Part shown: one piece after another, positions 28,901-46,525 of the stretch
How positions within the stretch are numbered: position 1 is the stretch's first letter
Layout of the letters: each line of letters starts with the position of its first letter
Source: Bdellovibrionales bacterium
Lineage (GTDB): Bacteria; Bdellovibrionota; Bdellovibrionia; Bdellovibrionales; UBA1609
Direction of reading: 5' to 3'
Assembly (NCBI GenBank): GCA_041740515.1
Contig: JBGSLV010000027.1
Location: 6,144 to 70,143 of the forward strand
DNA length: 64,000 nucleotides
Program-made: the position numbers and the translations under genes
The notes under the pieces: model-generated
Told to the model about the DNA's origin: nothing
Database searches by the model: none
Seen by the model: the letters and a program-made list of their open reading frames with translations, nothing else

Positions 28901-30028
28901 AACACCAGGCCCTGTAGATGCGGGAACTTCTAAAACAGTTCCATTGGATCGAAGTAACTGCACAGAAATAGTGCTAACAATAGGCTCTTTTTTAAGAGCA
29001 TAGGTGGTGGCGTTGGTTAAGATATCGGCTCGAATTTGATTTAAGTTTTGAATATAAGCTTCGCGGTTGGCATTGATATCAAAAGTATTGCCGGGACCAG
29101 CTGCTTCACGAGCAATATTTATTCCGTCTAAAGTCAAATCAACGAAAGAGTAAATCCCAAACTTATTGGGATCACCAGCTTTAATTTCTTCTCGGATATA
29201 GTCTATATACTGCTGGGCTGTATGATTTCCAGGGATTGCAACTCCTGGTTGATTGGGAGCAAAAGTCAGCGATGGGGTCAAATTATTTCTGGAACCATCT
29301 AGTTCATCCGAAATAATTATAACCGCCAAATAAGCTCCGGGCCGAGCAAAGCGCGGGGATGCCGACTTATCAAGTTCTAAAAATGTTTCAACACTTTGAA
29401 GGGGGCGCTCATCCCCAATGTATAAAGCAAGGTCTGTACGATCTGTCTGTGTGTTATTTTCAAACAGGTTGCCAGGTACCGCGGCATAGTCAGTGATATA
29501 ATCTATACCACACCCTGAAGTGTCTGCAGCAATACCGTAAACATCAAAGTTTCTTTTAAATTTATTTATGAACGTTCCAATATCAGAAGCTGTCCCCGGT
29601 GATAAGATCGAAGGCTGCTCAACGGCCGGTGGAAATGCCGTGCAGTCGCCACGATGAAGTCGAGCAAATAAAGCCCGTTCTGTTCCTCCGGCAGCACCTC
29701 CGTCTAAATAAGATAACCCATCTCTCTGATAAACTAAGTGCGACCAGGCTGCAGTTGAAATGACTCCCATCTGATAATCGTAGCCTTTGGTAATAAACTC
29801 GCCGATGAACTCTTGGATATTATTTTGAACTGTTTCGATCTCTGACTTCATACTTCGGGAGGGATCGACCACCCAAAGAATATCAATTTTAGGATTAAAA
29901 TCCAATGCCGAATCATCAAAAGCATCTGTGGTTTGGATGGTAGATATGGATCCTCCACCTCCACCGCACGAGATATTTAGAATAAATGCACTTGCCAGAA
30001 ATATCGTTTTTGCAATGCTTTTGGTCAT
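25940..30028 (-). CDS. giant surface lipoprotein: VWA-like N-domain, cadherin/Ig-like repeats, PA14-like domain
   Basis: Lipobox LNISCGGGGG. DILWVVDPSRSM (DxSxS MIDAS-like). Repeated ...FTIDSSNGQIVV... and ...TFTYTI... beta-repeat segments. GEVYSGYFVPAVTGVYKFRTRVVDNTVLLRI is PA14-like. Confidence 0.7.
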   Translation of the reverse strand: MTKSIAKTIFLASAFILNISCGGGGGSISTIQTTDAFDDSALDFNPKIDILWVVDPSRSMKSEIETVQNNIQEFIGEFITKGYDYQMGVISTAAWSHLVYQRDGLSYLDGGAAGGTERALFARLHRGDCTAFPPAVEQPSILSPGTASDIGTFINKFKRNFDVYGIAADTSGCGIDYITDYAAVPGNLFENNTQTDRTDLALYIGDERPLQSVETFLELDKSASPRFARPGAYLAVIIISDELDGSRNNLTPSLTFAPNQPGVAIPGNHTAQQYIDYIREEIKAGDPNKFGIYSFVDLTLDGINIAREAAGPGNTFDINANREAYIQNLNQIRADILTNATTYALKKEPIVSTISVQLLRSNGTVLEVPASTGPGVPGWVYEANIGDFGSIAFIGSDYIPGFRDGIIIDYTPRFLSSGQIEAPFLRLSNARIPENSVNGTPLGTVTLVNRNLAPTDVVSYSLVSNPVGSFTIDSSNGQIVVADSLLLNTEQLTNHQLVVSLTVTTADATVLNYERTFIVSILDLPDTPPVANPFTIEVSEASALANGDIIVTGNSSLFVSGVDGSEVHTYAVTAGPNSLPAPDLPATAFGTLSPNTNGTFTYTINRSDLDLIINGPNFQLTFEYTVTGTNTVAGSATTYGNPETSSALVNILITPTNTAPRYLTIENPINGGMSVTPSTEGIQFGLIPLQEADVTVSGIVSGSVASLIGAGSANLITASNASGYHEVAIAFPDDKLYEVSCVRIYRTGSSSLENAIYQIQTGGLNPIPITREVFPVGTTGNSNRPKPTNAQAECDVLSASYFTIYTDRNYIGGSLRLLRPFGAKNRQNETDLRLSKIEVYGTEARTTNIDLLDHFRDEDIALDGNDKQINGDGDTLTFYVTDAFGEGPAPGWANIPNNLTGGTQLQLLPSSSVNDVLGILAVDSSGFEAFTTIQVIGSGGGSVANAPPISLLKLDDTKRGGLSMRRWGGIGTTVPALCLPLASGDDNIVGHIEIDNFLENPFSSTSNYYDILDTISNPEQAIHNANGDVYSGETENGWCSIPVHEDNKYPTASSTFCGNSLFNNANNIGKIIPCLNSARSYGEVYSGYFVPAVTGVYKFRTRVVDNTVLLRIAPTEYAEDTTRIFLANWQDARVETILRSLIDFPTEDLGSTAARNSEFAGSGTGTSLTNYRAIPYDTNIFYDLNGIPNANNYNNNYTKGYMFMTQGNVYAFEMRFGEGGGGVFFEFQFDRRDLNGSVWDGWKPMDASVVVPDRGVSTAHTPFVIPITGLDQVVLEARDLFYDAELDLLEYSARLVNADGSVYSTGQIIEIGLSIGLLNGSLSGTLTPEFLALPTAERPRIVFRATERNSGNFAESLPIKLQ

Positions 30029-30299: not shown

Positions 30300-31355
30300 T
30301 TAATAATTTTGATTTGACGGTAAATATTTTTCAAAAAAGTTTTTTAAACTCAAAGGCAAGTCCTTTTCATCAAAGTTTTGCGGAGGTAAACTTAAAAACG
30401 TAATATGAAGTTCTTGATCTTCAGCCCAATAGATATCCTTAAGCTGTGATTCTTTATAGGAGTACAATCCAGCTTGAATCATAACTAACTCAAGCAGCTG
30501 TTGAAGAATTAAATTTGGAAGCTTTACACTTTCAAATAGTCTTCGATCTAATTGGTATCTTCTATTAGCTTTTGACTCTGGCATTCGTATAACTTCATTA
30601 GGAAAAAGCTGAACTTTAAAGTAACTCTCCTTATCCTGCTTTTTTTCTTCATAGTGATATACAACACCTATAACTTTATTTTGAAACAAAACAGGTCCAC
30701 CAGACATTCCTGCAACTTCTGCATGTGTTAAATTAAAAATCTGATCCTGAGTTAAATGAGTACTGCTTGAATTGCACTGCAAATGAATAGTACCCATTTG
30801 ATTTTCAAACCAAAAATTGGAAAATTTTATTGGTATTTGTTGGTATCTACGACAACTTAAATATAGTGTATCTTTAAAACGATGTCTTGATGGAAAACCT
30901 GCAATCACATAATCATTATTTGTGTCTAAATTTAAACTAAGTTTTGGATTTTTAGTGATAACATTTGAATGATTTTTAGTGAGTGGCAAGGAAACAATAT
31001 CAAAAGGCCCCATTTCATTAACAAAGTAATTCTTTTGGACCCCCAATAAATCTAAAATAATAAATCCTTCATCTGAAAGAATACGCATGTCCAATCTATG
31101 ATTACAATGTGCGGCCGTTATAACTTCGTAAGTACCTTCATCATAGAATCCAGTGCAGTGACCAAGATGACCTGGTGGTTTATTATCAATATCACCTAAT
31201 CTAAAAACATGAACCTATTTTTTAGCGAGAGCATCGTAGGTTGTGGCTTGGTTTCTCACATGAGCGCTAAAAATCTCAACATCTTGAGATTTAGCCCTTG
31301 AAGCTAAGACAATTATGGTTACAAAAAAACTAATTACTTTAGATACAAAACTCAT
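30300..31355 (-). pseudogene. trypsin-like (S1) serine protease interrupted by one in-frame TAG (31215..31217)
   Basis: ATG at 31355 gives signal peptide MSFVSKVISFFVTIIVLASRAKSQ...AKK, then TAG at codon 47. The same frame continues VHVFRLGD...YEVITAAHC (His motif) into listed ORF 30300..31094, which contains GMSGGPV (Ser motif). Confidence 0.7.
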
Positions 31356-32386: not shown

Positions 32387-33796
32387 CTAAAGGCTAGTAA
32401 CGCAGTGTGATCCGACTGCGGAACCTGGCACCTGAGCCTGGCACCTGAGGTGGTCGATTTGGGGGACAGTTAAGGTCATTGGGTTAAAGATTAGATTGAT
32501 ACTACTTTGTGGATCTTTGGACCAAGACTCAAGAAGTTTGGTATAAGCCCCTTCGCCATAACTTTTAAGTTCATCAAAATTTCTAATAAATTTTAAAACA
32601 CTGGGTTTATGATCTAAAACAATTTTGTTTTCAAAAGTTTTAAATTCGGCATTTTTAGACCAATTGTAACTGCCAGTGAGCACAAGTTTATCATCGACAA
32701 TCACATACTTATGGTGCATTTGCGGGGCATTGATAAAATCCCACGAGATCATATAGTATTTAAAATAGACATGAACACCTTCCTGATGAAGCCAACGCCC
32801 AAAATGAAACCCCGTTTGAACACAGTCTTCTAAATCTATACCTTTTTGCAAGCACTGCTCTTTCTCTAGGTCTTCGATCGCTTGATAGTCTGGACTTAAA
32901 TACTCTTGGCCATCTAAAATTAACTCAACTTTTACCCCTCTTTGCGAGGCTTGCCTTAGAGCGTTGGCTAAAGTGTACGAGCGTAAATGCCCGGTGGCCA
33001 CTTTGATACTTTTTTGTGCGGAGCTCAAATATTTAAGAATATTTTGCTCGACCCAACCCAAGTTTAAATGCTTTTTTAAACGGAAAATATATCTATCATT
33101 TCTAACTGCGGGTTCAAAGTTAACACTTGTAAACAATGCTAGATCTTGGTTTAACGCCGCTTTAGCAACACGAAGTGTGTCTTCACTTAAACTAGGTTTT
33201 GAAAAGCTATCGCTAGAAATTTCGTCTGTGATTAATAACGGATTGCTATACTTATATAAAAATTCAAATTCATTTTGGAATGAAGCTACTAGTTCTGGGC
33301 ACGATCTAGAGCACACCAATAGATTTTCGTCGTATGAAGCCGCTAGTGGTGTATCATTAAAATTGCCGCTCGTATTTAGAAGAACTTTCTTATCAATAAG
33401 CATAAACTTATGGTGATTGGTGACATTCACAAATCGTATGTTGGACGTATCGAGTCCTTGGGCCTTAAGAGCCTTTTCCAGCGGGGAAAGATAAGGGCTT
33501 AAGGCCTCAAGGGATACCTTACGAACTAAAAGTCGAAGCTCAAAGTCAGGATTGGTTTTTAATTTTTCTACCAGCGCTTGAACTATGGCTTCGGACCTAA
33601 ATGTATAAATGGCGATATCTATCTGTTGGCGCGCCCGTTGAATCTGCTCGACCACAATTTGATCCAAATTAGTTTTAGGAGCAAAGTAAATTTGATACGC
33701 ATAACTATTTGGAGAGGCTAAAAAAGACCCTAGCAAGATCAGGGCTAAAAGTTGCAAGTTAAAACTTATGTTTTTAGAACTTCGCAGTAGTTTCAT
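32387..33796 (-). CDS. secreted phospholipase D-superfamily protein with two HKD motifs
   Basis: Signal peptide. [20 protein letters not shown] and [20 protein letters not shown] (HxK(x)4D(x)6GS/GxN). The start overlaps the purT stop. Confidence 0.8.
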
Positions 33797-35086: not shown

Positions 35087-35401
35087 ATGCTACTAAGTAA
35101 CATCGAGACTATTCCAGGAAAAAACATTGAAGCCTATTTTGGGGTTGTCCAAGGTAGTAGTGTCCGAGCTAAACATGTCGGCCGAGATATTATGGCCGGA
35201 TTAAAAAATATTTTTGGCGGCGAATTAAAAGGTTACACTGAACTTTTAAATGAATCCCGCGAAGAGGCCGTTCAACGAATGATCCAAATGGCCCAGGCCA
35301 AAGGCGCCAACGCCATTGTTAACATCAGATTTTCAACCTCTGCCATAGCCGTTGGAGCCGCTGAAATTTTTGCCTACGGTACAGCCGTCAAAGTCATTTA
35401 A
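35087..35401 (+). CDS. ybjQ: YbjQ/UPF0145 family protein
   Basis: 104 aa. ...GKNIEAYFGVVQGSSVRAKHVGRDIMAGLKNIFGGELKGYTELL..REEA..RM...A...GANAIVNIRF... is the canonical YbjQ pattern. Confidence 0.8.
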   Translation: MLLSNIETIPGKNIEAYFGVVQGSSVRAKHVGRDIMAGLKNIFGGELKGYTELLNESREEAVQRMIQMAQAKGANAIVNIRFSTSAIAVGAAEIFAYGTAVKVI

Positions 35402-35464
35402 AGTTACATTCTTTGTTTAGAAAACTTTGTTTTAAAAAATACTAATTTAGATAACGAAGGATTT

Positions 35465-35923
35465 ATGGAATACATAGTTTATATTTTGGTAGCACTACCT
35501 GTGGTTCTGGGCTTTTTTATAGGTCGCTATATCGAAAAAAATCATTTAAAAAATATTTTTTTAAGAGAATCGGCCCTTAAAAATTTACCTTGGCGAAATA
35601 CCGGTAAAAAGGAGTCTTTTCCAGACTCTTACGGGGTGTTAGTTTCAGGTTCTGTAGTGATTGCTCAAGATGCCTTTAAAGCTTTTCTGGCCAATATATC
35701 TTTCATTTTTGGTGGTCGGGTCACACCCTACGAGTCTTTAATGGAACGAGCACGCCGTGAAGCCCTTCTTCGTATGCGCGAAAATGCACGAAGCCTTGGT
35801 GCCCATGAGATCGTTCATGTAAGGATGGAAACAGCCTCAATAGGTATGTCCAAAGCCAACTCTGCATCTGGTTCTGTCGAAGTGTTTTGCTACGGTACAG
35901 CCATTAAATTTCAAAACCTTTAA
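35465..35923 (+). CDS. membrane-anchored YbjQ-like protein
   Basis: N-terminal TM helix, then FIFGGRVTPYESLMERARREALLRMRENARSLGAHEIVHVRME, which parallels the YbjQ fold. Confidence 0.6.
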   Translation: MEYIVYILVALPVVLGFFIGRYIEKNHLKNIFLRESALKNLPWRNTGKKESFPDSYGVLVSGSVVIAQDAFKAFLANISFIFGGRVTPYESLMERARREALLRMRENARSLGAHEIVHVRMETASIGMSKANSASGSVEVFCYGTAIKFQNL

Positions 35924-35931
35924 AGACCCTT

Positions 35932-36747
35932 ATGTCGAAACCAAACGAACCTTTCAAGCCTGTTTTTAAAAGCACTGAGCCAGACTCTTTTGATATCAAT
36001 ATTGCAGATAAATCTGGTTTAAGAACACTTATGCTATCCTTGCTTGGAATTTTTGGACTGATTTTGACCATTTACATCTTAACCCGTTTAATTCTTAATT
36101 TCTCACCTTACTTTGTATCCGTCTCGCTTGAAAATAAAATTTTTAAATCCACCCACACCTATGTTTTCCCTGAAGCCAACTACTCGAAGTCCTTAACTGA
36201 ATTTGCAAAAAAACTCGACCCTGAAAATACGGCTGTGGAAGTTTTTGTGCTTCCCATGAAAGACTTAAACGCTTTTTGCTTTTTAGGAAATAAACTTTTT
36301 GTCAGTTCTGAACTGTTAAAAACAGCTACAACTGAAAACGAACTGGCCTTTGTTTTAGCTCACGAGCTTGGTCATGCGAAATTACGACATAATTTAAAAA
36401 ATTTAAGCATCAATTTAGTTATAGGTCTTTTTTTTAGTTTTGTTGATTTTTTACAACCAGCTTCCCAATTTTTGTCTACCGGCTATAGCCGTTCCATGGA
36501 ATCCGATGCCGATGATTTTGCGTTAAAAACTTTGCAAACCATTTATGGTCACACCTTGGGCGCTGAACTTTTTTTTAAACGAGTACAAAAACTTCGTCCC
36601 GAGTTCAGCAAAAAATTTGAAGCTTTTTCGGGAAACTACTTATCAACTCACCCAAATACCGAACAAAGATTAGCAAAAATTTTGAAGACACAAGATAATT
36701 CCAAAACATTTAAAGTTATTAAAAGAGAAGATTCTAAGTATTTGTAA
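35932..36747 (+). CDS. M48-family zinc metallopeptidase, membrane-associated
   Basis: HELGH zinc motif (LAHELGHAKLRH), TM segments, downstream ESDAD acidic motif. Confidence 0.7.
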   Translation: MSKPNEPFKPVFKSTEPDSFDINIADKSGLRTLMLSLLGIFGLILTIYILTRLILNFSPYFVSVSLENKIFKSTHTYVFPEANYSKSLTEFAKKLDPENTAVEVFVLPMKDLNAFCFLGNKLFVSSELLKTATTENELAFVLAHELGHAKLRHNLKNLSINLVIGLFFSFVDFLQPASQFLSTGYSRSMESDADDFALKTLQTIYGHTLGAELFFKRVQKLRPEFSKKFEAFSGNYLSTHPNTEQRLAKILKTQDNSKTFKVIKREDSKYL

Positions 36748-36753
36748 AGGGCT

Positions 36754-38610
36754 TTAAGAATTTTTAAATTTGATACCGACAAAACCAGTTTGATCACTTC
36801 GTACCACTTGGGCTTTGTATCTTAAGGTCTCACCATTGCCAAAAATTAGATTTAAAATCAATGTGCCAGAGGAAGAGCTATAATTATAATTGAGAGCATC
36901 ACCTAACAGCTGCAGTCCGGCCCCTGTCGTTGAAATGTTTTTAACCAAAACGGGAAGAATCCACCCATTGTCTAAAATCATTTGGCCCTGCATATTTACC
37001 GTTTTTCGTTCATTTTTACGTTTATCATTCTTTGCCATTCGCTGCTTTAGGCCCAATAGAAGTAAAACAGGTATAAAGAGTAAGATGCTACTAATATTAA
37101 ACTTTCGTTGATTTAACTGCATCTCAGGTTTGGTTTGTAAAAACTGATTATTATGATCTTGATAAAAATCTGCTACACGACCACAACCCAATCCAGAACT
37201 TACAGGATCTGACGAGGCTAAACTTCGATTACCTTGAGTATAAAGCGGTGTGTAGTTGGGTTGAGAGTTAGGATCTAACTGGTGCTCAAAGGCAAGAGCT
37301 ACCGCATTTTCAAAATTTATACGTCGGCCAGTTTTAATATAAATGTCACAAGCAGCGTTGTAATCCGCGGATTCTAATAAAATTTGTTTAATTTGATATC
37401 CTGACAAATTTGGTGCCACCAAAGCAATCATAGCCGCTAGCCCCGCAACAAAGGGCGATGCCATACTGGTACCTGTACTTGTATCAAATCCATTGACTGC
37501 AAATCGCATTGGATATGTACTATAAATCGCATTTCCTGGAGCAAATACGTCGACGGAATTTGGCCCAAAATTCGAAAAACTTGAGCGACACTGATCGACA
37601 CCACCATCATTCACATTGGACCAATTTCTGTTCGAAGACGTCGAAGCTACGCTGATCATACTTGGTAAATCCAAAGAGGACGGATAAATAGGAGCACTGT
37701 CATTATTGCTGGAACTGTTTCCTGCAGCAGCAACAATCACAATCCCATTATTATAAGCTGTGGTCAGAGCGGAATGAAGGGTCGAGCTATAGCTGCCGCC
37801 ACCCCAAGAGTTATTTATAACTTTGGCCCCACGATTTATCGCATAATTAATGGCATTGATCGCATCTGAGGTTTTACCAACACCCGACTCGTTTAAAAAC
37901 TTTAGGGGTAAAATTTGAACTCGAGGACTTGATGAAGCCCTAAATTCAAAAATATTTTCCGTACTTCCAAGAACGATACCAGAAACATGAGTCCCATGGC
38001 CGGTGTCGTCAGCTATATTTGATGAATTGCTGATAAAGTTCCAGCCGCTGACATCGTCAATATAGCCATTCCTATCATCATCTATGCCATTACCTGCAAT
38101 TTCATCTAAATTTTGGTAAACTCTATCTGTTTGATTGTAGATAGGATGAGTTAAATCTAAACCTGAATCGATAATGGCCACTATAGGTAAATCTTCAATG
38201 GCTCCAGGATTTGGCAGGATCGCCCAAGATTCCCGGATTCTGACAGGAGTACTGGTCATGGCATAGGGTAAATTGCTGGCATAGACATAAAAATTGGGTT
38301 CGGCAAATTCAACATTGGGGTCTCGTTTTAAATCATGAAGAATAGCTTCAAGATTTTCCCCAGGTTTAGTTTTAAAATGATTGATATTTAAACCCTTCCA
38401 AGATCTATGGTTTTGCAACTGAAACTGGGCAGCAACTTTACCTTGAACTGCGAACGAAGATGAAGTCTCTTTAAACTTTACAATAATCTCGTTGGGAACA
38501 ACGTCTTTGGCATCATAAGCCTTTGCAGAAACTGATATGAAAAGTATTAAAACTATAAACCTTACAAGAGCTAAAAACGACATTAGGTTTAGTTTCGAAA
38601 AACCATTCAT
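36754..38610 (-). CDS. subtilisin-like (S8) serine protease fused via a TM helix to a C-terminal PilZ domain
   Basis: Signal peptide. Triad motifs VAIIDSGLD, HGTHVSGIV, GTSMASPFVAG. TM ISSILLFIPVLLLLGL. PilZ motifs KRKNERK (RxxxR) and VKNISTTGAGLQL (D/NxSxxG), with ...AQVVRSDQTGFVGIKF. Confidence 0.8.
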   Translation of the reverse strand: MNGFSKLNLMSFLALVRFIVLILFISVSAKAYDAKDVVPNEIIVKFKETSSSFAVQGKVAAQFQLQNHRSWKGLNINHFKTKPGENLEAILHDLKRDPNVEFAEPNFYVYASNLPYAMTSTPVRIRESWAILPNPGAIEDLPIVAIIDSGLDLTHPIYNQTDRVYQNLDEIAGNGIDDDRNGYIDDVSGWNFISNSSNIADDTGHGTHVSGIVLGSTENIFEFRASSSPRVQILPLKFLNESGVGKTSDAINAINYAINRGAKVINNSWGGGSYSSTLHSALTTAYNNGIVIVAAAGNSSSNNDSAPIYPSSLDLPSMISVASTSSNRNWSNVNDGGVDQCRSSFSNFGPNSVDVFAPGNAIYSTYPMRFAVNGFDTSTGTSMASPFVAGLAAMIALVAPNLSGYQIKQILLESADYNAACDIYIKTGRRINFENAVALAFEHQLDPNSQPNYTPLYTQGNRSLASSDPVSSGLGCGRVADFYQDHNNQFLQTKPEMQLNQRKFNISSILLFIPVLLLLGLKQRMAKNDKRKNERKTVNMQGQMILDNGWILPVLVKNISTTGAGLQLLGDALNYNYSSSSGTLILNLIFGNGETLRYKAQVVRSDQTGFVGIKFKNS

Positions 38611-38827
38611 AGGTTCTTTTCGGCAGAACTTTAACTAAAACTTAAAACATTATTTTTAAAATATATGTATCAATATGAAACTAATTTATTTAAGTTATGA
38701 ATGATATTACTGAATATATGGGTCGTTTTAATTTTTAAAATGTCTAGACTTGGGTTCAAACTAATAAATGGATAAGATAGACGTTTTTGGGCTAATAAAT
38801 TCTGCAAATATTCAAGATTAAACACAT

Positions 38828-39649
38828 TTGTATTTTAATAGTCAAATATACCTAGGCAAAGTTCTTATTTTTGGTTTAAAAGATGGTTCTAAAAAACCAA
38901 GGATGAACATGTCGAAACGTATAAAACATCATGCAAAAAAAGCGTCTAAAGCACTAATTGCAATCGGGTCCGTTTATCTTCTCATTGCGTATTTGCTGCT
39001 ACCACAATTTTGGAATCAGTTCGAGGATACGCCTTCATTGGTCCTCACTCCACACCTCACCTACACGGCTGACAAAATACCTGGTGATCCCATCAATCTT
39101 GCGATTTATGCTACTGAACAGGAACTGATAAACGCATATTTAAATGCAAATTTCACCCAAGCCTCAGCTCTGAATATTCGAGATGACATACGTATTGGCG
39201 TAAGTGTAGTTTTTGATCGCCCAGATCGTAATGCCCCTGTAAGTAATTTGTATTTATGGAATCGCAAACAAGATTTAGCTTTTGAACAAGAGGCTGGACA
39301 AAGTGCCGACCATCGCCATCATGTTCGTTTTTGGAAATCCACCCAAACATCCCATGACAAAAGGCCTTTATGGCTTGGATCAGCCACTTTTGATAAAGGC
39401 TCTGGCCTTAGTCATCGCACAGGACAAATCACCCATCATATCGCGGCCGATATAGACAAAGAACGAGACTACGACCTTCGCTCTTTGATTGCGACACAAC
39501 AGGTTTTGAAATGGCACCAAGCCCCAGGTGTAGGAGCCACTCAAGATAGTCGAAATGGGGGTGGTGATAGATATTTTACCGATGGAAAAATGACTGTGAT
39601 TGTTTTAACACCAAAAAAAAATAGTGATAGTGAACCTCCCCAAGGTTAA
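38828..39649 (+). CDS. LssY-C-terminus-like membrane-anchored protein
   Basis: TM anchor, then DPINLAIYATEQELINAY...HHVRFW...PLWLGSATFD, reminiscent of the LssY C-terminal domain. The true start is probably MNMSKR (about 38904). Confidence 0.5.
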   Translation: MYFNSQIYLGKVLIFGLKDGSKKPRMNMSKRIKHHAKKASKALIAIGSVYLLIAYLLLPQFWNQFEDTPSLVLTPHLTYTADKIPGDPINLAIYATEQELINAYLNANFTQASALNIRDDIRIGVSVVFDRPDRNAPVSNLYLWNRKQDLAFEQEAGQSADHRHHVRFWKSTQTSHDKRPLWLGSATFDKGSGLSHRTGQITHHIAADIDKERDYDLRSLIATQQVLKWHQAPGVGATQDSRNGGGDRYFTDGKMTVIVLTPKKNSDSEPPQG

Positions 39650-39816
39650 GTGAATTTTCATTATTAAAACACCTAAAAAAGGTCCTACTCTACTAAGTAG
39701 ACTAATTTTTTATTAGCTTTGATATTGATCTGAACGTACATATTGTTGCACCAAAATAAATTAATTTTGGTGCTCAACTTGCACATAGACAGCTACATGA
39801 ACTTAGCTGGAGAGTA

Positions 39817-40974
39817 TTGATGTTTTGGGCACAAATTTTTTATAAATTGTATATGTCTTTTTGTATTTATTTTATTTTTTTGACCACTCCCGCACTTTCA
39901 GCTGTCGAGCAGAAGTTTGATATTGATGAAAATCCTGAATTTATTCTTGAGACCGAGCGACACTCTGGCAATGGAATTTACAATAATAACGTAAATATAC
40001 CTGTCATTCCTATTTCAGGATTTATTACCGATCAGAAGCAAAATAATCATTTAATTAGTTTATAGGGAATTCCTTATAATTCTCAATTCCCAGGTGAATG
40101 GATATGGATTGATCCACGCAACCCACTTGTTCTAACTCTCATTTTCCCAGGGGGCGGCGGACAACAAACTGTTAACTTGGGTTTAAACGAAGTCATTTCA
40201 CTCAAATATCATTTTGAACACTCTGCCTTTCCGATTGCAGCTGGTGCTTGGCTGACTGTCAAAGGAATTCGGGAGTACCAAGGTCAGCTTCAAGAAGTAG
40301 AAATCGAGATAAAAATAACTGATGGATTTGGCGGCTACCTCGACACGAAGTGGACCCTGCCTTTATTAAATAACGAAGAAAAAGAATTTGTAGCGAAGGA
40401 ACCAATTAAAATAACCGTGAGCGATACGCATCCCCGCAACTTACCACCTGAGGGAATAGATCTGGCTCCTAAACCAGTTCCAACCACTGAGGCTCGACCT
40501 TTTGTGAGTATTTTTACTCCGTTGCCTGTTTTAATGTGGTCTGATAATTTCGGCTTTATTGATATCAAAATCAAAGTATCGAAGAATCTACACATGTGGG
40601 ACTCCGCAGTAGGTTTTGCAAACCCTAATTATTTGCCTACAGACGCAGAGGTTATTCAATTTCCATCACCAGAGGCCTTACCTCCAGAATTTATTTTTAT
40701 CCGCATTTCGTATGATAATGAGCTTGCAGAAACTCTTAGAATGTTGTTTGCACAAGATAATCAACATATGAATTTGGCACTGCAGATTTCTGGAAAATCT
40801 TATCGCACGGACCGGACCTACACAGAAGCAGACAAGGTATTAGGCACATCAGAGCCTACTGAACATTTTGGTACTTATCACAATATAAATTTTGGATCCG
40901 ATGTAAAATTGAGAGTTTTAACTTACCCAAAAACTAATCCGTACACTTGCAGTTCCTACCTAGGGGCAAAGTAA
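39817..40974 (+). pseudogene. secreted hypothetical protein gene interrupted by one in-frame TAG (40063..40065)
   Basis: ORFs 39817..40065 and 40177..40974 are in the same frame. The stretch between them (GIPYNSQFPGEWIWIDPRNPLVLTLIFPGGGGQQTVN) has no stop. The N-terminus has a signal peptide (CIYFIFLTTPALSA). Confidence 0.6.
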
Positions 40975-41248
40975 TATTTGTTTCCAAATTGACCGACCTG
41001 ACCCAAACCAACTCGAAAGAGCTTTACAAAAATAATTGAGTAAAAACTTATTGATTTTGAAGGGTTAGAAACTGAAGAACTTGTTACTCATCCGTTTACA
41101 AATGAAGCTTTCATCGCATTAACATTATTAAGATACGATGATCACTGCCAAACTAAAAATAATTTAAAATTTGAAATTTAACTTTACTTAAGTGCAAAAA
41201 AAAGCAAGATATCTATTGTGAAGTTAAAGTTAGAACAAGGACTTAGCT

Positions 41249-42010
41249 ATGAAAATAAATAGTTTGTTTGTTTTTTTTTGCATTTTTAATTCTCAAGTAT
41301 TTGCAAATGAATGCAAAGATTTTTTAGCTCCAATTACTAGTGGACTAGCTTTAAATTCCGATGATATTTTTCGTACTCTGATGGATGCACCACTGAATCT
41401 ACCGCAAGAACATTGGATTTTTTTAGATGCAAATTACGGCACTCAATCTGTGACTCAATATGGAGCGCGAATAGTCCCTTCCTTGATGGGAGAACCTATT
41501 TCTACAGTTTACGAACTCATTCAATCCGCAAGTAAAGACCCATCTAATATAAGCAGAGGTCTTCGTTTAGCAAATTTAGATCCTGATCGTTTAAATAGAT
41601 ATTTTGAATTGAATCCTGATTCTGGAGAAACCCTCAAAAGTGTATTTGGTCGTGGGATTGAAGTGGCTTATGTAGTGTTAACAACAGTAAAAGGTGAACA
41701 ATTCTTTAAATATATTAGTACTTATCTTCCTGATTCAGTTGACTTTAACTTTTTGGAAATGAAAGCAATTGATAAATTTATTGAAGAAGTTGAATTGGGT
41801 TTAAAAGAAGATCAAATCATTAAATTAGATGTTTACCATAATCATCCTGAGCCTCAGCCTTTAAGCCCTGAAGATGTTGCCTTCATTCGTTCACTTGCAT
41901 TTAGAAAAGGATTTTTCTCAGAAATATTTGCTTTTGCAGAAAAAGGTGGTTCAGTATTTATCTTTGGATCTGTTTTGGCTAAGGGCGGTAGAGTTGAAAT
42001 CAGTGATTAG
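41249..42010 (+). CDS. secreted protein with C-terminal JAB/MPN (RadC-like) metalloprotease-like motif
   Basis: Signal peptide FVFFCIFNSQVFA. VYHNHPEPQPLSPEDVAFI resembles the JAMM HxH-x7-S-xx-D motif, but with spacing one residue short. Confidence 0.4.
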   Translation: MKINSLFVFFCIFNSQVFANECKDFLAPITSGLALNSDDIFRTLMDAPLNLPQEHWIFLDANYGTQSVTQYGARIVPSLMGEPISTVYELIQSASKDPSNISRGLRLANLDPDRLNRYFELNPDSGETLKSVFGRGIEVAYVVLTTVKGEQFFKYISTYLPDSVDFNFLEMKAIDKFIEEVELGLKEDQIIKLDVYHNHPEPQPLSPEDVAFIRSLAFRKGFFSEIFAFAEKGGSVFIFGSVLAKGGRVEISD

Positions 42011-42428
42011 GGCAAAGAATTTATCTGATTAAAAAAAACAAAGAAGAAATTAACACTACGTCATCTGTATCACTTCTTTCATTTATAAGGGTATTAACTT
42101 TATAAAGTAAGAATAATATCGATAAAAGCCCAAAGGCTACAAATAATAAAACAATAATTTCCATAGGATCTTTCAACATCTTATTAGATTAGATGAAAAT
42201 TAAAATTCATAATATGACGATGTAGTTGATTATAGTATTTCAGGATTAAATTACTGGAATCGTAACTGTTTATGAGCGACTCACTATCTCCACCATTTCG
42301 ATTAGAATTTAAGCACTGATAGAATTAAATATAAGATTCATTTTAGAATTCAATCAAGCTGCTCTATAGGGCTTGATTTCAGGTTCGATTTACCGAGAAG
42401 CCTATTTAAGGACTCTTTTATTGCGTCT

Positions 42429-43298
42429 TTAAAGTAAAAAGTTGTGACAGCTTTTTATTTTTGTAGCACCAACCGGACCAGCAATTTTGTTCGCAAAGTT
42501 TAGCAGTTGAAGCCTTAGATTTGAGTCTTCCAGATATGAAGGCAGAACCTCTTCTGCATGGACGGGCGCACGGTAGATTGAGACTTTTCCTTTATCATAG
42601 CCTGTAAAATCGATATGCTCCCGAAAACGGTACTGATATATTTTAGTTTCAGTGGCTTCATAAAATCCGTAGAAAAACATCGATTGCGTTTGTAAATTTG
42701 GCATAGAAAAATATATGGATTCAATAGCTCCATTTTTATAAATGACGGTAATAATTGCGTTGTAAATAGATGGATTTAAAGATTCGTCTAAATAAAATAG
42801 ATAATAGTTCGATAGGATGGATTCACCATCCTCATCCGGATATGTCTTTGTTGAATTTGAAATTATAACAGCAAGAGCTTGACTTTGATTCGGGTAAAAA
42901 ACGACTAAATTACTAAGATCGATAATTTCGAAAGGTGGGGTTAAGTCATGTGCCAAATTCGAAAAAACTCCAGGGGGTAGGCCTGCGTCACCACCGTATT
43001 GAAAATATTGAAGTACAGGCCCTACTCCAGATTTATATAGCTGGAGGCGGTTCCTTTGGTTAAAGATGTCACGCGAAAGAACACCTGAAAGAATCAAATT
43101 ATTGCCAGATTCGATTACGGATTTAGGAACGTTTTCTGGATAGATTCCTCTATTAAAAAATGTAAAAGTTGTGTGCCATGGGTTCATTTGAGGTTCTTGA
43201 TCAGGATCGCTATCTTGCGAATCAAACCCGGCTAGCATAAACAAAAAAAGTAGCAAAAATGTAGCTCTATTTAATAGCAGGCAGTGACCCTTCATCAT
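42429..43298 (-). CDS. hypothetical secreted protein
   Basis: 289-aa ORF with leader LLLFLFMLAGF. No recognised domain. Confidence 0.4.
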   Translation of the reverse strand: MMKGHCLLLNRATFLLLFLFMLAGFDSQDSDPDQEPQMNPWHTTFTFFNRGIYPENVPKSVIESGNNLILSGVLSRDIFNQRNRLQLYKSGVGPVLQYFQYGGDAGLPPGVFSNLAHDLTPPFEIIDLSNLVVFYPNQSQALAVIISNSTKTYPDEDGESILSNYYLFYLDESLNPSIYNAIITVIYKNGAIESIYFSMPNLQTQSMFFYGFYEATETKIYQYRFREHIDFTGYDKGKVSIYRAPVHAEEVLPSYLEDSNLRLQLLNFANKIAGPVGATKIKSCHNFLL

Positions 43299-43845
43299 AA
43301 ATACCCTTTAGTTATACTGTATTGGTTTTAAGGTATGCCAAAAGGGTGTGTGTAATCAAAAAAAAACTTCCGATTTAAATGTTTTACAATTAAAAATAAC
43401 ATTTAGTGTAATAGGAAAACAAAAAAAGAACTCCCCCAACTTTGCTATTTTTTGAACAAAACCCCGACGCATTTCTCTAGTGATTTTAGGTTTTTAACGC
43501 CTTCACTTCAGTCGTTATTAATTTCATATATTTCATTTTTACTAATGAACACATATCTCACAAAAATACTTTTTCCTCCAATTCCTTTTCCTTGATCTGG
43601 TCTCGATTCAAAATACGAAGTAAAAACTAAAATATTTAATGTGCCATCTTGATTGAAATCTTTAAATTTAACAGCCTCAACCTTCGCAAAATCAAACATG
43701 GTGGTAACAACTAAGTCCGAGGATGGAAGAGGATAGGAAAAACATTGTGATAATCTGCTCTCATAACGACAAAAGTTGAAAATGGCTTTTTTTTAAAATT
43801 ACGGTTTTTCCAGGGCGTCTACTATAGGACAGACTATTCGTAGCA

Positions 43846-45921
43846 TTAAAGTCTTCCATTCCGTCCTTCAGAAATTCCACTGGTAATGTAGTGCATAATC
43901 GCTGCCTTATAGTTTTTAGCTCCAAAGCCACGTTCCAACTCATTATATCGTTGTAAGTAAGTGACACTTGAAAAAAAAGGAGAACCCTGACGTCCTTCAT
44001 TAATTCCAGATGTAAGCCAATGATCTACAGCACCTGCATAGTTAAGACCGTAAGCTTTTCTTAAGTCAGGATAATGATCAACATACCAGATCACATTGAA
44101 GACCTCACTTCGCAAACTAGCCAGTCCAACCCGGCCTTCATTAGCGCCTTCCTTCACAAAATGATCAATGGCATCAATGTAGTTTGTGCTGCCGAGTCCT
44201 TCAGAATTATCCGGATATATTTTCAAATATTCGGACACTAGGAAGGTATTCGAACCTTGCCTGCCTTCTCTCATTCCATTTAAACGCCAATGCTCAGTAG
44301 CCTCGTATGTGTTGTTACCAAAGGCACTGAATAAATCTGGATAATTCTGTAAATACCAACTGGCATTAAATACCTCAGTTGGCAGAGAAAAGGTGAAGGG
44401 ATCCCAATTTAGACCGTAAAGCCTAAGCGTTCCGTTTTTGACTATGTTTCCAAATGTGAATGGCGGGCCCGTCATTGGTCCCTCGGGCCAGTAGCTCTCA
44501 ATACTAAACAGAATCTTTGCGACTTTAGGATCTTTAAAGGTATTTTCCAATACACTCATTCCCTGCCCTCGCAATCTCATCGAACCCCTCATTGAACCAA
44601 CCACATTTCGACGAATTGAGCTACCAGGGCTAGAAGTAGATACATTGAAGACCATATCCCCGTTTTGAACGATTCCTTTTACAGATCGGTCCAAGGTCAA
44701 GAGCCAACTGGAGCCTTGATCACTTACTGCCTTTACAGTCATCGTTCCATCACCGGGGAAACGTAAAGCCTTGCGGTCGGCACTAGTAATTTGAATGGAA
44801 TCACCGATTTCGTAGGTCTGACTGATTACTTTTCCGACAAGAAACTTATCATCGTCCACAAGGCTCAGGCCCGAGCAGCTAGAACTGATGTTTATATAAT
44901 CATCCCCTATATTTGAGACATTTCCATTATGAAGATGGAATTTCGCGCGACTGTCAATCAGATGGTAGGCATCGGAATTGATGGAAAGCACCCGACCCGG
45001 GGATGGTACTATTGATATACTATCGACATCGATTAATCCTGAAACGTTTACAAACACGAATCCCATGAATGGTGCAGCTCGGAGCTCAACTTGATAGAAA
45101 TTAAGGTTTGTCGACGATTGCGCAACCACACCATGAGTGACAAGAGGCGCGAAGGCTATCTGATCACCGGCCGTTACAAAATTTCGAATGTCATTGTAAG
45201 AGGTCATTTTCCACTTGCGGCCACCAAGATTTACCATTGATTTAGTTGAAAAGTAGTCCGCTAAAGCTATGGCTTTAGTCCATTTTCCAGTTGAATCAAA
45301 GACCTGTCCTGGAGGTAGTTTGCAAGATTCCAAACTAAGGCAGCTCCCAAACATGAGCGCGTCATTGGGTTCCATAAATCCATCTTGGATCTGGACAGTG
45401 ATCGTATTTATGAGATTTCGATCATTTTGGTCTGACGAAACATTGAGAACATGAACCTGAGAAAAAGGCGGTGTTTCGTAATCAATCGAAATTCCATGGA
45501 CTGTTATGTTTTTAGACTGGTCCATAAATAAAAAACCAGAAATTGGGGAAGTGATTAGAATCTTTGTTTTGCCAGGGACTCCCTGAATTTTAAGGCCGTT
45601 AACCCCACCGACATTCAAACAGTAGGACCCTGGAGTGTTGTCGCATTTTAATCGATAGACACCGGGATCTAAAATCAAAGATGTAGGAGTTTGACTTGAA
45701 AAAGCCCGATTGATGCCCGGCTGTAGATTGTTTCGATCATCTGAACTTGCGGGTATAACGATGACGGTTGATGGCTGACAAGAACCATCTACCAAAATCT
45801 GGCTGGAAGAACATAAGCTCGCGGATCGTTCAGTAAACCCCGATAAATTGCAATTCTGGAATAGGACAAAGATAAGGGTCAAAGTAAAAAAAGCCAACTT
45901 TGGAGAAAATCTTGGATTCAC
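43846..45921 (-). CDS. lipoprotein with probable right-handed beta-helix region and four C-terminal ~45-aa repeats
   Basis: Lipobox LFQNC. Central Gly/Asn/Ser-rich short-strand periodicity. The C-terminus has 4 tandem units of consensus F..YL..YPDL...FG..Y..A..HW...G..EGR.G. Confidence 0.55.
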   Translation of the reverse strand: MNPRFSPKLAFFTLTLIFVLFQNCNLSGFTERSASLCSSSQILVDGSCQPSTVIVIPASSDDRNNLQPGINRAFSSQTPTSLILDPGVYRLKCDNTPGSYCLNVGGVNGLKIQGVPGKTKILITSPISGFLFMDQSKNITVHGISIDYETPPFSQVHVLNVSSDQNDRNLINTITVQIQDGFMEPNDALMFGSCLSLESCKLPPGQVFDSTGKWTKAIALADYFSTKSMVNLGGRKWKMTSYNDIRNFVTAGDQIAFAPLVTHGVVAQSSTNLNFYQVELRAAPFMGFVFVNVSGLIDVDSISIVPSPGRVLSINSDAYHLIDSRAKFHLHNGNVSNIGDDYINISSSCSGLSLVDDDKFLVGKVISQTYEIGDSIQITSADRKALRFPGDGTMTVKAVSDQGSSWLLTLDRSVKGIVQNGDMVFNVSTSSPGSSIRRNVVGSMRGSMRLRGQGMSVLENTFKDPKVAKILFSIESYWPEGPMTGPPFTFGNIVKNGTLRLYGLNWDPFTFSLPTEVFNASWYLQNYPDLFSAFGNNTYEATEHWRLNGMREGRQGSNTFLVSEYLKIYPDNSEGLGSTNYIDAIDHFVKEGANEGRVGLASLRSEVFNVIWYVDHYPDLRKAYGLNYAGAVDHWLTSGINEGRQGSPFFSSVTYLQRYNELERGFGAKNYKAAIMHYITSGISEGRNGRL
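43849..44376 (-). repeat. four tandem coding repeats (~135 nt / 45 aa each) at the 3' end of 43846..45921
   Basis: EVFNASWYLQNYPDLFSAFG...EGRQGSNTF / LVSEYLKIYPDN...EGRVG... / EVFNVIWYVDHYPDLRKAYG...EGRQGSPFF / SSVTYLQRYNELERGFG...EGRNGRL. Confidence 0.8.
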
Positions 45922-46525
45922 AGGCTGCTACTCCTCAAATAAAAAGCTTTATGTGAAAAATATAAATTTAAAAAAGTCTTATATATAGCACTTTCAAGAT
46001 AATCCAAACGGGAAAAAGTCAAAGCAATGACTCAAACTGATTCATGAACAATACCAAGCTGTTAAACATTGTCTTAAAAAACCGCTTCACAATACTTAAG
46101 TGACTTGCAATTAGCCGTCCAGGTAAAACGTGGTTTGAGCCGACTAGATCGCCTTCAATTTTTACATTGAAAAAAATAAAGACATAAGTTGCGGAATTGT
46201 TTTCTTTGTGATTTTTTGCAAAAATTTAGGTGACAAAAGTTATTTGGGCTCGTCATGTTCAAACATCAGATTTCTTAAAAAGATCGATTTCCTGAAAAGT
46301 TAATAATTAACATTCCCGCAAATATGAATTCGCAAATAGAGATTTCAGACAATACTTTAAGGGAATAGTCTCATGGCGCAAGCAACACCTCTTGGTGGCT
46401 GCACTTACCGGTTACCTTGATCGTTCAAAGTAAATTTTTAGCAAAAAACCTATCTAATGTATTGCCATTTAATTCATGTTTATCAAGAACATTGCTAAGC
46501 CTTTTACGTCATTTATTAAGCTAGG

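Follow-up and report, generated by a model that had tools for sequence, protein, structure and literature searches.

The messenger c-di-GMP is cytoplasmic, and to our knowledge only few mechanisms are known by which it exerts control beyond the inner membrane, namely LapD/LapG, Alg44, BcsA and related secretion systems. In the LapD/LapG system of Pseudomonas fluorescens a cytoplasmic c-di-GMP receptor is linked across the inner membrane to a periplasmic protease. The receptor LapD combines HAMP, a degenerate GGDEF-EAL part that binds c-di-GMP at the EAL domain, and a structured output domain in the periplasm, and LapG is a cysteine protease (BTLCP/DUF920) controlled by sequestration. Alg44, the alginate co-polymerase of P. 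aeruginosa, is a single-pass inner-membrane protein with PilZ at its N-terminus in the cytoplasm and, in the periplasm, a functional domain that resembles membrane-fusion proteins, and it works in a multiprotein polysaccharide secretion complex. In the cellulose synthase BcsA the PilZ domain directly follows a transmembrane (TM) helix with RxxxR in the juxtamembrane linker, and the catalytic domain is cytoplasmic and touches PilZ directly. Among the proteases, the mycosins (MycP) associated with type VII secretion are S8 enzymes with an N-terminal signal, a C-terminal single TM anchor and a short cytoplasmic tail without PilZ. Subtilases of the deseasin MCP-01/thermitase type are freely secreted, with C-terminal PPC/PKD-type domains and without a TM anchor or signalling domain.

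The closest described protein is Bd2545 of Bdellovibrio bacteriovorus HD100 (CAE80343.1 / NP_969350.1; EP01_RS08730 in strain 109J), annotated as “subtilisin like serine protease”. The combination “Subt-PilZ” was catalogued for B. bacteriovorus NP_969350.1 in 2008 (PMC2605481), Bd2545 was counted among the pilZ genes in 2010 (PMC2797640), and a review of 2020 names Peptidase_S8 as one partner domain of PilZ (PMC7288161). An attack-phase transcription start site with a FliA site was mapped experimentally for Bd2545 (PMC3627812 Table S2), its transcript was mapped as monocistronic (PMC3627812), and the gene is down-regulated upon exit from the attack phase (PMC2797640). Tn-seq fitness data have also been published (PMC6561027), in which transposon insertions in the 109J ortholog came out neutral, both in axenic culture and with V. 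cholerae or E. coli as prey (W = 0.96-1.46). Any role of Bd2545 is thus redundant or condition-specific.

Comparison of the locus with known systems

The locus considered here lies in a 64-kb stretch of DNA, in the following called the window, which derives from hot-spring metagenome DNA. The earlier note regarded its product as a would-be single-polypeptide version of the inside-out control known from LapD/LapG. The logic of a receptor and a protease linked across the inner membrane is shared, as an analogy and not as homology: LapD/LapG are two proteins whereas the window protein is one chain, its protease is a serine enzyme of family S8, and Pfam finds neither HAMP nor GGDEF-EAL domains in the protein or its neighbors. 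Receptor domain, protease class and mechanism all differ.

Alg44, the PilZ domain of which is among the structural matches reported below (4rt0, 4rt1), has the opposite orientation, and its periplasmic part is not an enzyme with a prodomain. The juxtamembrane arrangement of BcsA recurs in the window protein, but with the enzyme predicted to lie across the membrane from PilZ. The best NCBIfam match is the mycosin model TIGR03921, which at 113.5 bits remains far below the family cutoff of 278.75, and ESX/T7SS genes were not found in the neighborhood of the gene.

Gene and domain organization

The reading frame on the minus strand encodes 618 residues followed by a TAA stop, exactly as the earlier note had it. 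The features are the following, with the basis of each call in brackets.

38618..38645, minus strand: predicted attack-phase promoter of the FliA (sigma-28) type, TTAAG-N17-CCGAAA (motif scan)
36754..38610, minus strand: whole ORF, predicted exported S8 protease, TM helix and PilZ domain (ORF check, Pfam)
38518..38610, minus strand: signal peptide, aa 1-31, MNGFSKLNLMSFLALVRFIVLILFISVSAKA, with a signal-peptidase-I-type site between AKA and Y (hydropathy, AF2)
38293..38514, minus strand: N-terminal prodomain, fervidolysin/I9-like, aa 33-106 (Pfam PF22148)
37360..38187, minus strand: Peptidase S8 catalytic domain, aa 142-417 (Pfam, 165 bits)
38167-38169, minus strand: codon of D148, S8 triad
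37996-37998, minus strand: codon of H205, S8 triad
37717-37719, minus strand: codon of the oxyanion residue N298, S8 active site
37465-37467, minus strand: codon of S382, S8 active site
37174..37263, minus strand: conserved, predicted extracytoplasmic linker motif, aa 450-479, QPNYTPLYTQGNRSLASSDPVSSGLGCGRV (alignments A1 and A3)
37099..37173, minus strand: variable flexible stalk, aa 480-504 (pLDDT 36-43, unconserved)
37048..37098, minus strand: single TM helix, aa 505-521, NISSILLFIPVLLLLGL, with P514 at 37069-37071 (hydropathy, AF2)
36760..37026, minus strand: PilZ domain, predicted cytoplasmic, aa 529-617 (Pfam, profile, fold)
37006-37020, minus strand: RxxxR motif, R531-K-N-E-R535 (motif)
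36922-36939, minus strand: (D/N)xSxxG motif, N558-I-S-T-T-G563 (motif)

The order is therefore signal peptide, fervidolysin-type prodomain, S8 domain, a linker of about 60 residues, TM helix and PilZ. This agrees with the order claimed from the sequence alone, to which Pfam adds the prodomain; both Peptidase_S8 and PilZ are matched, and the strings quoted earlier for the TM segment, RKNER and NISTTG were all located. Hydropathy yields just three hydrophobic stretches, which are the signal-like N-terminus, the buried helix carrying the catalytic serine of S8, and residues 503-522. In the full-length AF2 model (pLDDT 83.9) the last of these corresponds to a helix at aa 506-528, which is followed by a beta domain at aa 536-615.

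The signal peptide shows a hydropathy peak at aa 4-33 and an AF2 helix at aa 5-27, and at least 95 of 120 homologs possess a hydrophobic N-terminal segment; the cleavage site was assigned by the AxA rule and not by a dedicated predictor. The Fervidolysin_NPro-like prodomain (40.7 bits) is modelled confidently as beta-alpha-beta and was found in most homologs. The S8 domain, with pLDDT mostly above 90, contains Asp, His and Ser in order within D[ST]G, HGTH and GTSMA.P. The D/H/S motifs seen earlier correspond to D148, H205 and S382, and together with N298 these residues are invariant in all 120 homologs. The S8 domain is thus intact and the protein is a predicted protease. The closest solved catalytic domain, that of deseasin MCP-01 (3vv3, E = 5.7e-53), suggests a broad-specificity degradative S8A enzyme. 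Propeptide and putatively cleavable hydrophobic N-terminus are as in S8 zymogens, and sequence, profile and fold evidence together identify the gene product as a subtilisin-family zymogen, with signal peptide, prodomain and intact S8 domain, tethered to the inner membrane.

Linker, membrane anchor and topology

The linker contains a conserved stretch in which P451, R462, G475 and C476 are invariant in alignment A1; in A3 R462 is conserved to at least 90%. Because the pLDDT drops below 50 from aa 461 onwards, this stretch has the character of a conserved linear motif within flexible surroundings. The complete 44-residue segment that joins S8 to the TM helix (aa 461-504) remains below this value and is variable or Gly-rich in relatives, the stalk proper (aa 480-504) being Gly-rich in those of the Bd2545 type. 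A linker modelled as disordered offers no obvious signal path to the catalytic domain, which counts against coupling.

The TM segment has a Kyte-Doolittle hydropathy of 2.35 over 17 residues, and a hydrophobic 17-mer occurs at the same position in 119 of 120 homologs. Its central proline P514 is invariant in both alignments. The invariance of P514 and of G475-C476 suggests that the anchor region does more than anchor. In the window protein the 20 residues before the TM helix include 3 K/R and 2 D/E, compared to 8 K/R and 2 D/E in the 20 residues behind it; the mean net charge over the 120 homologs is +0.9 before and +4.7 after the helix. Signal peptide, secretion-type prodomain and this conserved positive-inside bias support the predicted topology, with the protease outside and PilZ in the cytoplasm. 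What the earlier note had said about the hydrophobic segment and its orientation thus stands as a prediction, the segment being conserved, modelled as helical and followed by a basic cluster.

The PilZ domain

The Pfam PilZ model (PF07238) matches residues 529-617; it scores 23.5 bits on the full-length protein and 28.5 bits if the C-terminal tail is searched alone, the gathering cutoff being 22.5. We note that the whole-protein score (23.5 vs 22.5) is barely above the cutoff, which counts against the coupling. All of 27 family tails pass the Pfam model (best E 4.6e-20). With phmmer the single tail gave no PilZ match among PDB sequences and a family profile was needed; the profile built from the family tails matches VCA0042, BcsA and YpfA, including c-di-GMP-bound PilZ proteins, with both motifs aligned. 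Modelled by AF2, the tail (pLDDT 85.9) has six strands as in the PilZ beta-barrel, and the top 38 Foldseek matches in the PDB are all PilZ domains, the best being BcsA (TM 0.77-0.78, rmsd 1.6 Å). MapZ, PA0012, Alg44, YcgR, MotI, PlzD, PlzA and MrkH are also among the matches. Pfam, the profile search against PDB sequences, and fold comparison thus agree on the assignment as PilZ that had been proposed from the motifs.

The domain starts nine residues past the TM helix. Both motifs are located as proposed, and N558xSxxG563 begins 27 residues past R531, compared to an expected spacing of about 25-30. No variation is seen at R531, R535 and G563, and S560 is conserved to more than 90%, including sequences with about 20% tail identity. 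In the second motif, 13 of 248 scored family members keep D/N and the rest have T, S or C instead; T or S is found in 231 of the 248, Bd2545 (TISQGG) included. Across the family, binding of c-di-GMP can therefore not be taken for granted. The window's own subclade retains the canonical D/N, and for the window protein we infer that c-di-GMP is bound by PilZ via R531xxxR535 and N558xSxxG563. A search of the accessible literature, outside of which lies the Bdellovibrio c-di-GMP interactome of Rotem et al. 2016, found no binding, topology or activity measurements for family members.

Distribution of the family and relation to Bd2545

A database survey found the S8-TM-PilZ architecture in more than 240 sequence clusters, all of which belong to Bdellovibrionota where named, and PF00082 together with PF07238 in nearly all of the approximately 240 clusters listed. 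The Gly-Cys motif of the linker and the TM proline are invariant across the family. Full-span matches of a linker-TM-PilZ profile were S8 fusions or fragments only, and this search found no other N-terminal domain on the same tail. A single-sequence search of genome contigs gave no match; an alignment-based scan of the contigs, dominated by generic S8 motifs, gave two true full-length relatives, here called L001 and L002.

One of the homologs (P0236) is CAE80343.1; the promoter and the qPCR primer given for Bd2545 in PMC3627812 match its upstream region and start without a difference. Bd2545 has the same order of signal peptide, prodomain, S8, linker, TM helix and PilZ. It also has the P-x-Y-x-P-x-Y and G-C-G linker, the central TM proline, the basic cluster and the juxtamembrane RxxxR, and all of these marks of the Bd2545 type are found in the window protein. 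The two share 40% identity over the protease part and the same type of FliA promoter, whereas their tails have diverged too far for a BLASTP alignment. Bd2545 further differs by an extra C-terminal helix, absent from the window's subclade, by a leader of 19 nt that contains a Shine-Dalgarno sequence (GGAG), where the window gene appears leaderless, and by its genomic neighborhood. Bd1283, a “serine protease/subtilase” whose gene has an Slt gene in its vicinity, like that of L002, was rejected as ortholog; it has only 467 aa, and it is Bd2545 that matches in sequence.

Sequence, profile and fold evidence therefore place the window protein as a divergent member of a Bdellovibrionota-restricted family with Bd2545 as representative. 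The gene is a new member of a catalogued but biochemically uncharacterised family, and the architecture is real but not new. The earlier note was not aware of the fusion having been characterised, which is right in so far as no binding or protease study was found; the fusion had however been noticed in 2008, 2010 and 2020, and in the promoter and Tn-seq papers. Searching other papers and supplements for NP_9693xx accessions and Bd254x tags found no further mention.

Promoter and genomic context

The putative promoter of the window gene ends 7 nt before the ATG, from which a leaderless or near-leaderless mRNA is predicted. The published attack-phase consensus of Bdellovibrio is TTAAG-N16-CCGATA. 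TTAAG-N16/17-CCGAWA matches the window at this site only (64 kb, both strands; 0.21 matches expected), and a looser scan for E. coli-type sigma-28 sites yields five distinct sites, and the site before this gene is the sole intergenic one among them. L001 carries the element in the same place, it is also conserved in L002, and at sequence level it corresponds to the mapped Bd2545 promoter, where the −10 element reads CCGAAT. This conservation points to transcription from a FliA/sigma-28 promoter in the attack-phase program of the free-swimming predator.

The neighboring genes encode M48, YbjQ, PurT and LssY_C proteins. In the window, and likewise in L001 as its closest relative, a convergent gene for a membrane M48 metallopeptidase lies directly against the 3′ end, and the convergent M48/YbjQ/PurT block is common to these two only. 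It is missing from L002 and B. bacteriovorus, and no conserved operon or functional partner gene was found among L001, L002 and B. bacteriovorus. In L002 an HtpX-type M48 gene occurs two genes away, which we treat as coincidence.

Possible mechanisms

The entry of Bdellovibrio into its prey and its change from attack to growth are both under the control of c-di-GMP. With somewhat more confidence than doubt we favor the view that the gene encodes an attack-phase periplasmic protease, tethered to the inner membrane, the action of which is coupled to cytoplasmic c-di-GMP by clustering, localization or release and not by rigid allostery. Cytoplasmic c-di-GMP would, via PilZ, set the behavior of the periplasmic protease. 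The Arg-rich segment close to the membrane may become ordered around bound c-di-GMP, and this could change the oligomeric state, the position or the partners of the TM-PilZ anchor. The change in the anchor would in turn decide on the site of action of the protease, or on its release by a cut at the conserved linker motif. As the linker is predicted to be disordered, rigid transmembrane allostery is not the most likely mode, and clustering, localization or shedding fits better. Probable substrates are envelope or surface proteins of the predator itself, which is the least certain part of this proposal.

A bolder and rather unlikely version is a single-chain switch that unleashes the active subtilase in the predator envelope at invasion. 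Upon prey contact, locally made c-di-GMP (e.g. by DgcB) would bind the juxtamembrane RxxxR/PilZ region, the Pro-kinked TM anchor would be reorganized or dimerized, and the invariant R-x-LAS ... G-C-G motif would become open to cleavage, which would free the active subtilase at the moment of invasion. If true, the family would provide the first demonstrated case of PilZ control over an extracytoplasmic enzyme in one polypeptide, and a new mechanistic route for inside-out second-messenger signalling.

Several other explanations have to be weighed. The PilZ tail might be a degenerate or ligand-independent adaptor for docking or retention of a constitutively active, anchored attack-phase hydrolase. 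The marginal Pfam score, the T or S in the second motif of most members, the neutral Tn-seq phenotype and the precedent of PilZ-fold proteins without c-di-GMP binding (such as PilZ/PA2960 and XC1028) speak for this reading. We consider it unlikely, since both arginines of RxxxR and the glycine of xxSxxG are invariant and the serine is kept in more than 90% even at about 20% tail identity, a pattern expected under selection on a ligand site, and since the window's subclade retains the canonical D/N. We give an equally low probability to the linker-TM-basic region being a processing or sorting signal, with a cut near R-x-LAS ... G-C-G, autocatalytic or by another protease, that leaves a TM-PilZ stub behind and leads to release of the protease or to its lipidation on Cys476 as in MYXO-CTERM-type sorting. 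In a variant by regulated intramembrane proteolysis, a second cut at the Pro-containing helix would free PilZ for outside-in signalling. The invariant Gly-Cys in an otherwise variable, disordered linker, the invariant helix-breaking proline followed by a basic cluster, and the convergent M48 gene in the window and L001 would fit such processing. However, no NCBIfam model of C-terminal sorting tags (MYXO-CTERM, GlyGly-CTERM, PEP-CTERM and similar) matches aa 446-536, Cys476 lies about 28 residues before the TM helix and not adjacent to it, and 97 residues follow the helix, with a folded 90-aa domain behind the basic cluster that known CTERM tags do not have; the M48 neighbor is not kept in L002 or B. 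bacteriovorus. Processing of this kind is compatible with c-di-GMP-controlled shedding and competes only partly with the explanation we favor.

Strict LapD-like allostery within one chain, in which c-di-GMP would move the TM helix by piston or rotation and thereby switch catalysis, appears still less probable. RxxxR lies only nine residues past the TM segment and the AF2 helix runs to residue 528, so that the ligand could act on the helix, and BcsA, the best fold match, gates its enzyme by a juxtamembrane PilZ domain. Yet the 44 residues between S8 and the TM helix are predicted to be disordered and are variable or Gly-rich, a flexible tether that cannot transmit a conformational change, and a HAMP-like or structured periplasmic transmitter is lacking. 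An assembly or gene-calling artefact in which two separate genes, one for a protease and one for a PilZ protein, were joined is suggested by nothing but the metagenomic origin of the window. It is refuted for practical purposes by the same continuous ORF in more than 240 clusters, including complete genomes of cultured B. bacteriovorus strains, and by the monocistronic Bd2545 transcript.

Significance

The tie to Bd2545, a genetically tractable ortholog for which the attack-phase FliA promoter is known and a transposon mutant is available, makes the proposed coupling of a periplasmic protease to c-di-GMP directly testable, and the window's subclade with its fully canonical PilZ motifs may suit binding studies better. 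As the ortholog is dispensable for predation in the laboratory, the payoff would be a signalling mechanism and not a key predation factor. A protease and a PilZ receptor on one chain that crosses the membrane would represent the simplest conceivable wiring for c-di-GMP control beyond the inner membrane, and the fusion is conserved across a whole lineage of predators in which c-di-GMP decides attack, invasion and growth.

Domain architecture and topology

The ORF at 36754..38610 on the minus strand encodes a protein of 618 amino acids. The features are listed by residue; signal peptide, catalytic residues, TM helix and PilZ motifs were re-translated from the window coordinates.

N-terminus: signal peptide, MNGFSKLNLMSFLALVRFIVLILFISVSAKA
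aa 33-106: fervidolysin-type N-terminal prodomain (Pfam, 40.7 bits)
aa 142-417: Peptidase_S8 (Pfam, 165 bits)
D148, H205, N298, S382: catalytic residues
aa 450-479 (37174-37263): conserved linker motif QP.Y.P.Y..G.R.LAS......G.GCG.V (alignments)
aa 505-521: TM helix, NISSILLFIPVLLLLGL
aa 529-617: PilZ (Pfam, 23.5 bits in the whole protein, 28.5 bits for the 97-aa tail alone; gathering cutoff 22.5 bits)
aa 531-535, RKNER, and aa 558-563, NISTTG: PilZ motifs

Hydropathy analysis gave only three hydrophobic stretches, aa 4-33, aa 380-402 and aa 503-522, the second of which is the buried helix with the catalytic Ser that is normal for a subtilisin fold. The earlier note had described an exported subtilase fused through one TM helix to a PilZ domain, and its factual statements were all correct; the Pfam scan it suggested returned both Peptidase_S8 and, above the cutoff, PilZ.

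A search of 5.8 billion proteins yielded more than 5,900 S8 relatives. PF00082 together with PF07238, usually also PF22148, is present in nearly all of the best 120, whose length is 580-660 aa and whose identity to the query is 35-67%. In this set no substitution occurs in the catalytic triad or at the oxyanion Asn, and a hydrophobic 17-mer lies at the matching position in 119 sequences. The mean net charge of the 20-residue flanks is +0.9 before and +4.7 after the helix; the window protein itself has three K/R and two D/E before it and eight K/R and two D/E after it. Applied to these charges, the positive-inside rule argues for a cytoplasmic C-terminus, and the signal peptide and secretion-type prodomain argue for a protease outside, which together places the two domains on opposite sides of the membrane in the predicted topology.

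PilZ identity of the tail

By phmmer the tail alone found no PilZ match among PDB sequences. A profile of 27 family tails matched VCA0042/PlzD (5.7e-5), E. coli BcsA (1e-4) and B. subtilis YpfA/MotI (4e-4) in the same database with both PilZ motifs aligned, and each of the 27 tails passes Pfam PilZ singly (best E = 4.6e-20). An AF2 model from the tail alignment is a six-stranded barrel (pLDDT 85.9), for which each of the top 38 PDB structures matched by Foldseek is a PilZ domain (BcsA, MapZ, PA0012, Alg44, YcgR, MotI, PlzD, PlzA and MrkH), with TM-scores up to 0.78 and an rmsd of 1.6 A. The assignment of the tail to PilZ, made in the earlier note from motifs, thus holds at profile as well as structure level. 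R531, R535 and G563 are invariant in the alignments, and S560 is invariant or nearly so.

Linker and TM helix

The full-length AF2 model (29-sequence alignment, pLDDT 83.9) is very confident for the S8 domain and shows a helix at aa 506-528 and a beta domain at aa 536-615, with pLDDT below 50 for aa 461-504. According to this model the conserved motif would be a linear one in an otherwise disordered extracytoplasmic linker. The second part of the linker is a variable stalk of 20-30 residues, Gly-rich in Bd2545-type proteins. Unexpectedly, G475-C476 in the linker (C476 codon 37183-37185) and P514 in the middle of the TM helix (37069-37071) are invariant in the alignments. The invariance of Cys476 and Pro514 indicates that linker and TM helix have a role beyond simple anchoring, for which a cleavage site, a disulfide dimer, lipidation or a hinge are possibilities.

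The family and its Bdellovibrio member Bd2545

With the Bdellovibrio sp. relative from L002 (with L001, one of two full-length relative loci) as query, the protein search retrieved B. bacteriovorus proteins; cluster P0236 contains CAE80343.1 (HD100) and AHZ85049.1. The gene maps to ~2.455 Mb and is flanked by a DUF502 gene and mgtE. Its upstream sequence agrees exactly with a promoter in Table S2 of Karunker et al. 2013 (PMC3627812), entered there as [quoted passage not shown], and the bd2545 qPCR primer of that paper matches its start. Bd2545 thus represents the family in HD100.

A survey of prokaryotic serine proteases published in 2008 (PMC2605481) gave Bd2545 (NP_969350.1) as its sole "Subt-PilZ" architecture, with the function "Signalling", and in a 2020 review (PMC7288161) Peptidase_S8 is just one entry in a list of Pfam domains that accompany PilZ. 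Bd2545 is among the pilZ genes down-regulated as Bdellovibrio leaves the attack phase (PMC2797640). Its neighbouring genes, for a "magnesium transporter" and an ABC transporter, served to recognise the 109J ortholog, EP01_RS08730, in the Tn-seq data of PMC6561027. In axenic culture and with V. cholerae or E. coli as prey its W is 0.96-1.46, above the defect threshold of that paper (W below 0.1 to 0.5), and the gene is therefore non-essential and dispensable for laboratory predation. Among the papers within reach of our literature search, none was a study of binding, topology, activity or localisation of Bd2545.

To define the family range, a linker+TM+PilZ profile was run against 1.84 billion representatives. 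It gave 50 matches with E <= 1e-30 and about 90 spanning the profile from the linker onward, while matches weaker than ~1e-17 span the PilZ part alone. The His and Ser motifs of S8 are present in every full-length match (~580-680 aa), and the short ones begin within the S8 domain as truncated ORFs, so this tail is found solely on S8 proteases. Where organisms are named they are Bdellovibrio, Bdellovibrionaceae, Pseudobdellovibrionaceae, Bdellovibrionales or a higher-rank MAG label such as Deltaproteobacteria. Among genome-resolved relatives, the one nearest to the window gene (53% identity) comes from a Pseudobdellovibrionaceae MAG, and the exact window sequence was matched solely in three DNA runs of one study labelled hot springs metagenome.

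Bd2545 is 40% identical to the window protein over prodomain, S8 domain and linker start, but BLASTP leaves the tails unaligned. The first position of (D/N)xSxxG is D or N in only 13 of 248 family members scored (elsewhere T 180, S 51, C 4), and these 13 form a small subclade made up of the window protein with its nearest relatives. Bd2545 has T in this motif (TISQGG) where the window protein has N, and the extra C-terminal helix (I..W...L) of the majority clade is absent from the window protein. As the textbook motif is kept in the window protein and not in Bd2545, predicted c-di-GMP binding is better supported for the former; Bd2545 may have a different mode of c-di-GMP binding, or none.

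Promoter and expression

A predicted promoter lies directly upstream of the ATG:

38645..38618, minus strand: FliA-type promoter, TTAAG-N17-CCGAAA

It is the sole match to TTAAG-N16/17-CCGAWA on both strands of the 64-kb window (0.21 expected), and in a looser sigma-28 scan of the window it was the only site both intergenic and directly before a gene. Of 140 attack-phase promoters of Bdellovibrio, 92 carry the published consensus TTAAG-N16-CCGATA (PMC3627812). The element reads TTAAG-N17-CCGAAT in L001, the closest relative (protein 53% identical), and CTAAA-N17-CCGAAT in Bd2545; L002 has a weaker version. For Bd2545 the attack-phase TSS and FliA promoter were mapped by experiment (PMC3627812), and attack-phase FliA control of the window gene is inferred from the conserved promoter.

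In the window (38608-38645, minus strand) 7 nt separate the end of the -10 element from the ATG, and in L001 (7925-7970) 8 nt; neither locus has a Shine-Dalgarno sequence, in contrast to Bd2545 and L002, whose leader contains GGAG/GGAGG. If the distance from hexamer to mapped TSS in Bd2545 (9 nt) is applied, the TSS would fall on the A of the ATG in both loci, and hence a leaderless mRNA is predicted.

Genomic context

By arrangement the gene is monocistronic, with a divergent LssY_C gene on its upstream side and a convergent block downstream:

35087-36747, plus strand: YbjQ-YbjQ(TM)-M48 metallopeptidase, with M48 last, convergent with the S8-PilZ 3' end at 36754 and followed by PurT

The stop codons of the M48 and S8-PilZ genes are only 6 bp apart; in L001, which shares the block (9730-11377), the two genes overlap by 14 bp, and so neither locus has room for separate terminators. 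Because the block is absent from L002 and B. bacteriovorus, no functional partner is inferred from synteny.

Immediately upstream of its S8-PilZ gene, L001 has a PpiD-like gene and mreC-mreD-PBP2; in the window these are set apart from it by ~8.3 kb of other genes (38828-47155), possibly an insertion or variable region. This stretch includes an LssY_C protein and several ORFs without Pfam match, some with signal-peptide-like N-termini, among them a 691-aa protein (43846-45921). The window is also rich in hydrolases and surface proteins (6979-9426, 14769-17411, 22923-24929, 25940-30028, 32387-33796), among them a protein of the penicillin-amidase family, a nuclease/phosphatase that contains a 5'-nucleotidase domain, an M13 peptidase, a 1362-aa cadherin-domain putative lipoprotein and a PLD-family protein, several with signal-peptide-like or lipoprotein-like N-termini. 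This fits a predatory Bdellovibrionota lifestyle. A 264-aa ORF (30300-31094, minus strand) with a GMSGGPV motif and a weak Peptidase_S55 match (E = 0.0015) looks like a divergent chymotrypsin-fold serine protease without clear family. The GC content is ~32-43% across 2-kb segments.

Possible mechanism

Architecture and fold, ligand-site residue conservation and family membership are established for the window protein. The PilZ tail would bind c-di-GMP, and binding could order the Arg-rich juxtamembrane segment, which begins 9 residues past the TM helix, onto the barrel. In solved PilZ complexes (BcsA, Alg44, PA4608) the ligand orders such a segment in this way. The ordered segment might alter the state of the TM-PilZ anchor. 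Of the possible outputs, all under control of the ligand, we favour clustering, localisation or the binding of partners, or else release at the conserved motif of the linker.

A rigid allosteric transmission across the membrane seems improbable, given an extracytoplasmic tether that is predicted to be flexible. That the PilZ domain is a ligand-independent adaptor we regard as unlikely, and we are equally doubtful that the linker region is a processing or sorting signal, a reading that overlaps with release; no match to NCBIfam sorting-signal models was obtained for this region. An assembly artefact was excluded as the origin of the fusion.

Among known systems, the likeness to LapD/LapG proposed in the earlier note stands for the logic alone; both defining features of that system are missing from the window protein. 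The PilZ domain of BcsA is structurally closest, Alg44 has a similar topology but in reversed orientation, and mycosins are likewise TM-anchored S8 proteases, of which the window protein misses both the family cutoff and the gene context.

Present in databases and a survey paper since 2008, the architecture is no surprise as a discovery. The window protein is a new, divergent member of a Bd2545-type family that is catalogued but functionally uncharacterised, and those who specialise in c-di-GMP signalling or in predatory bacteria would find the S8-TM-PilZ architecture worth testing.
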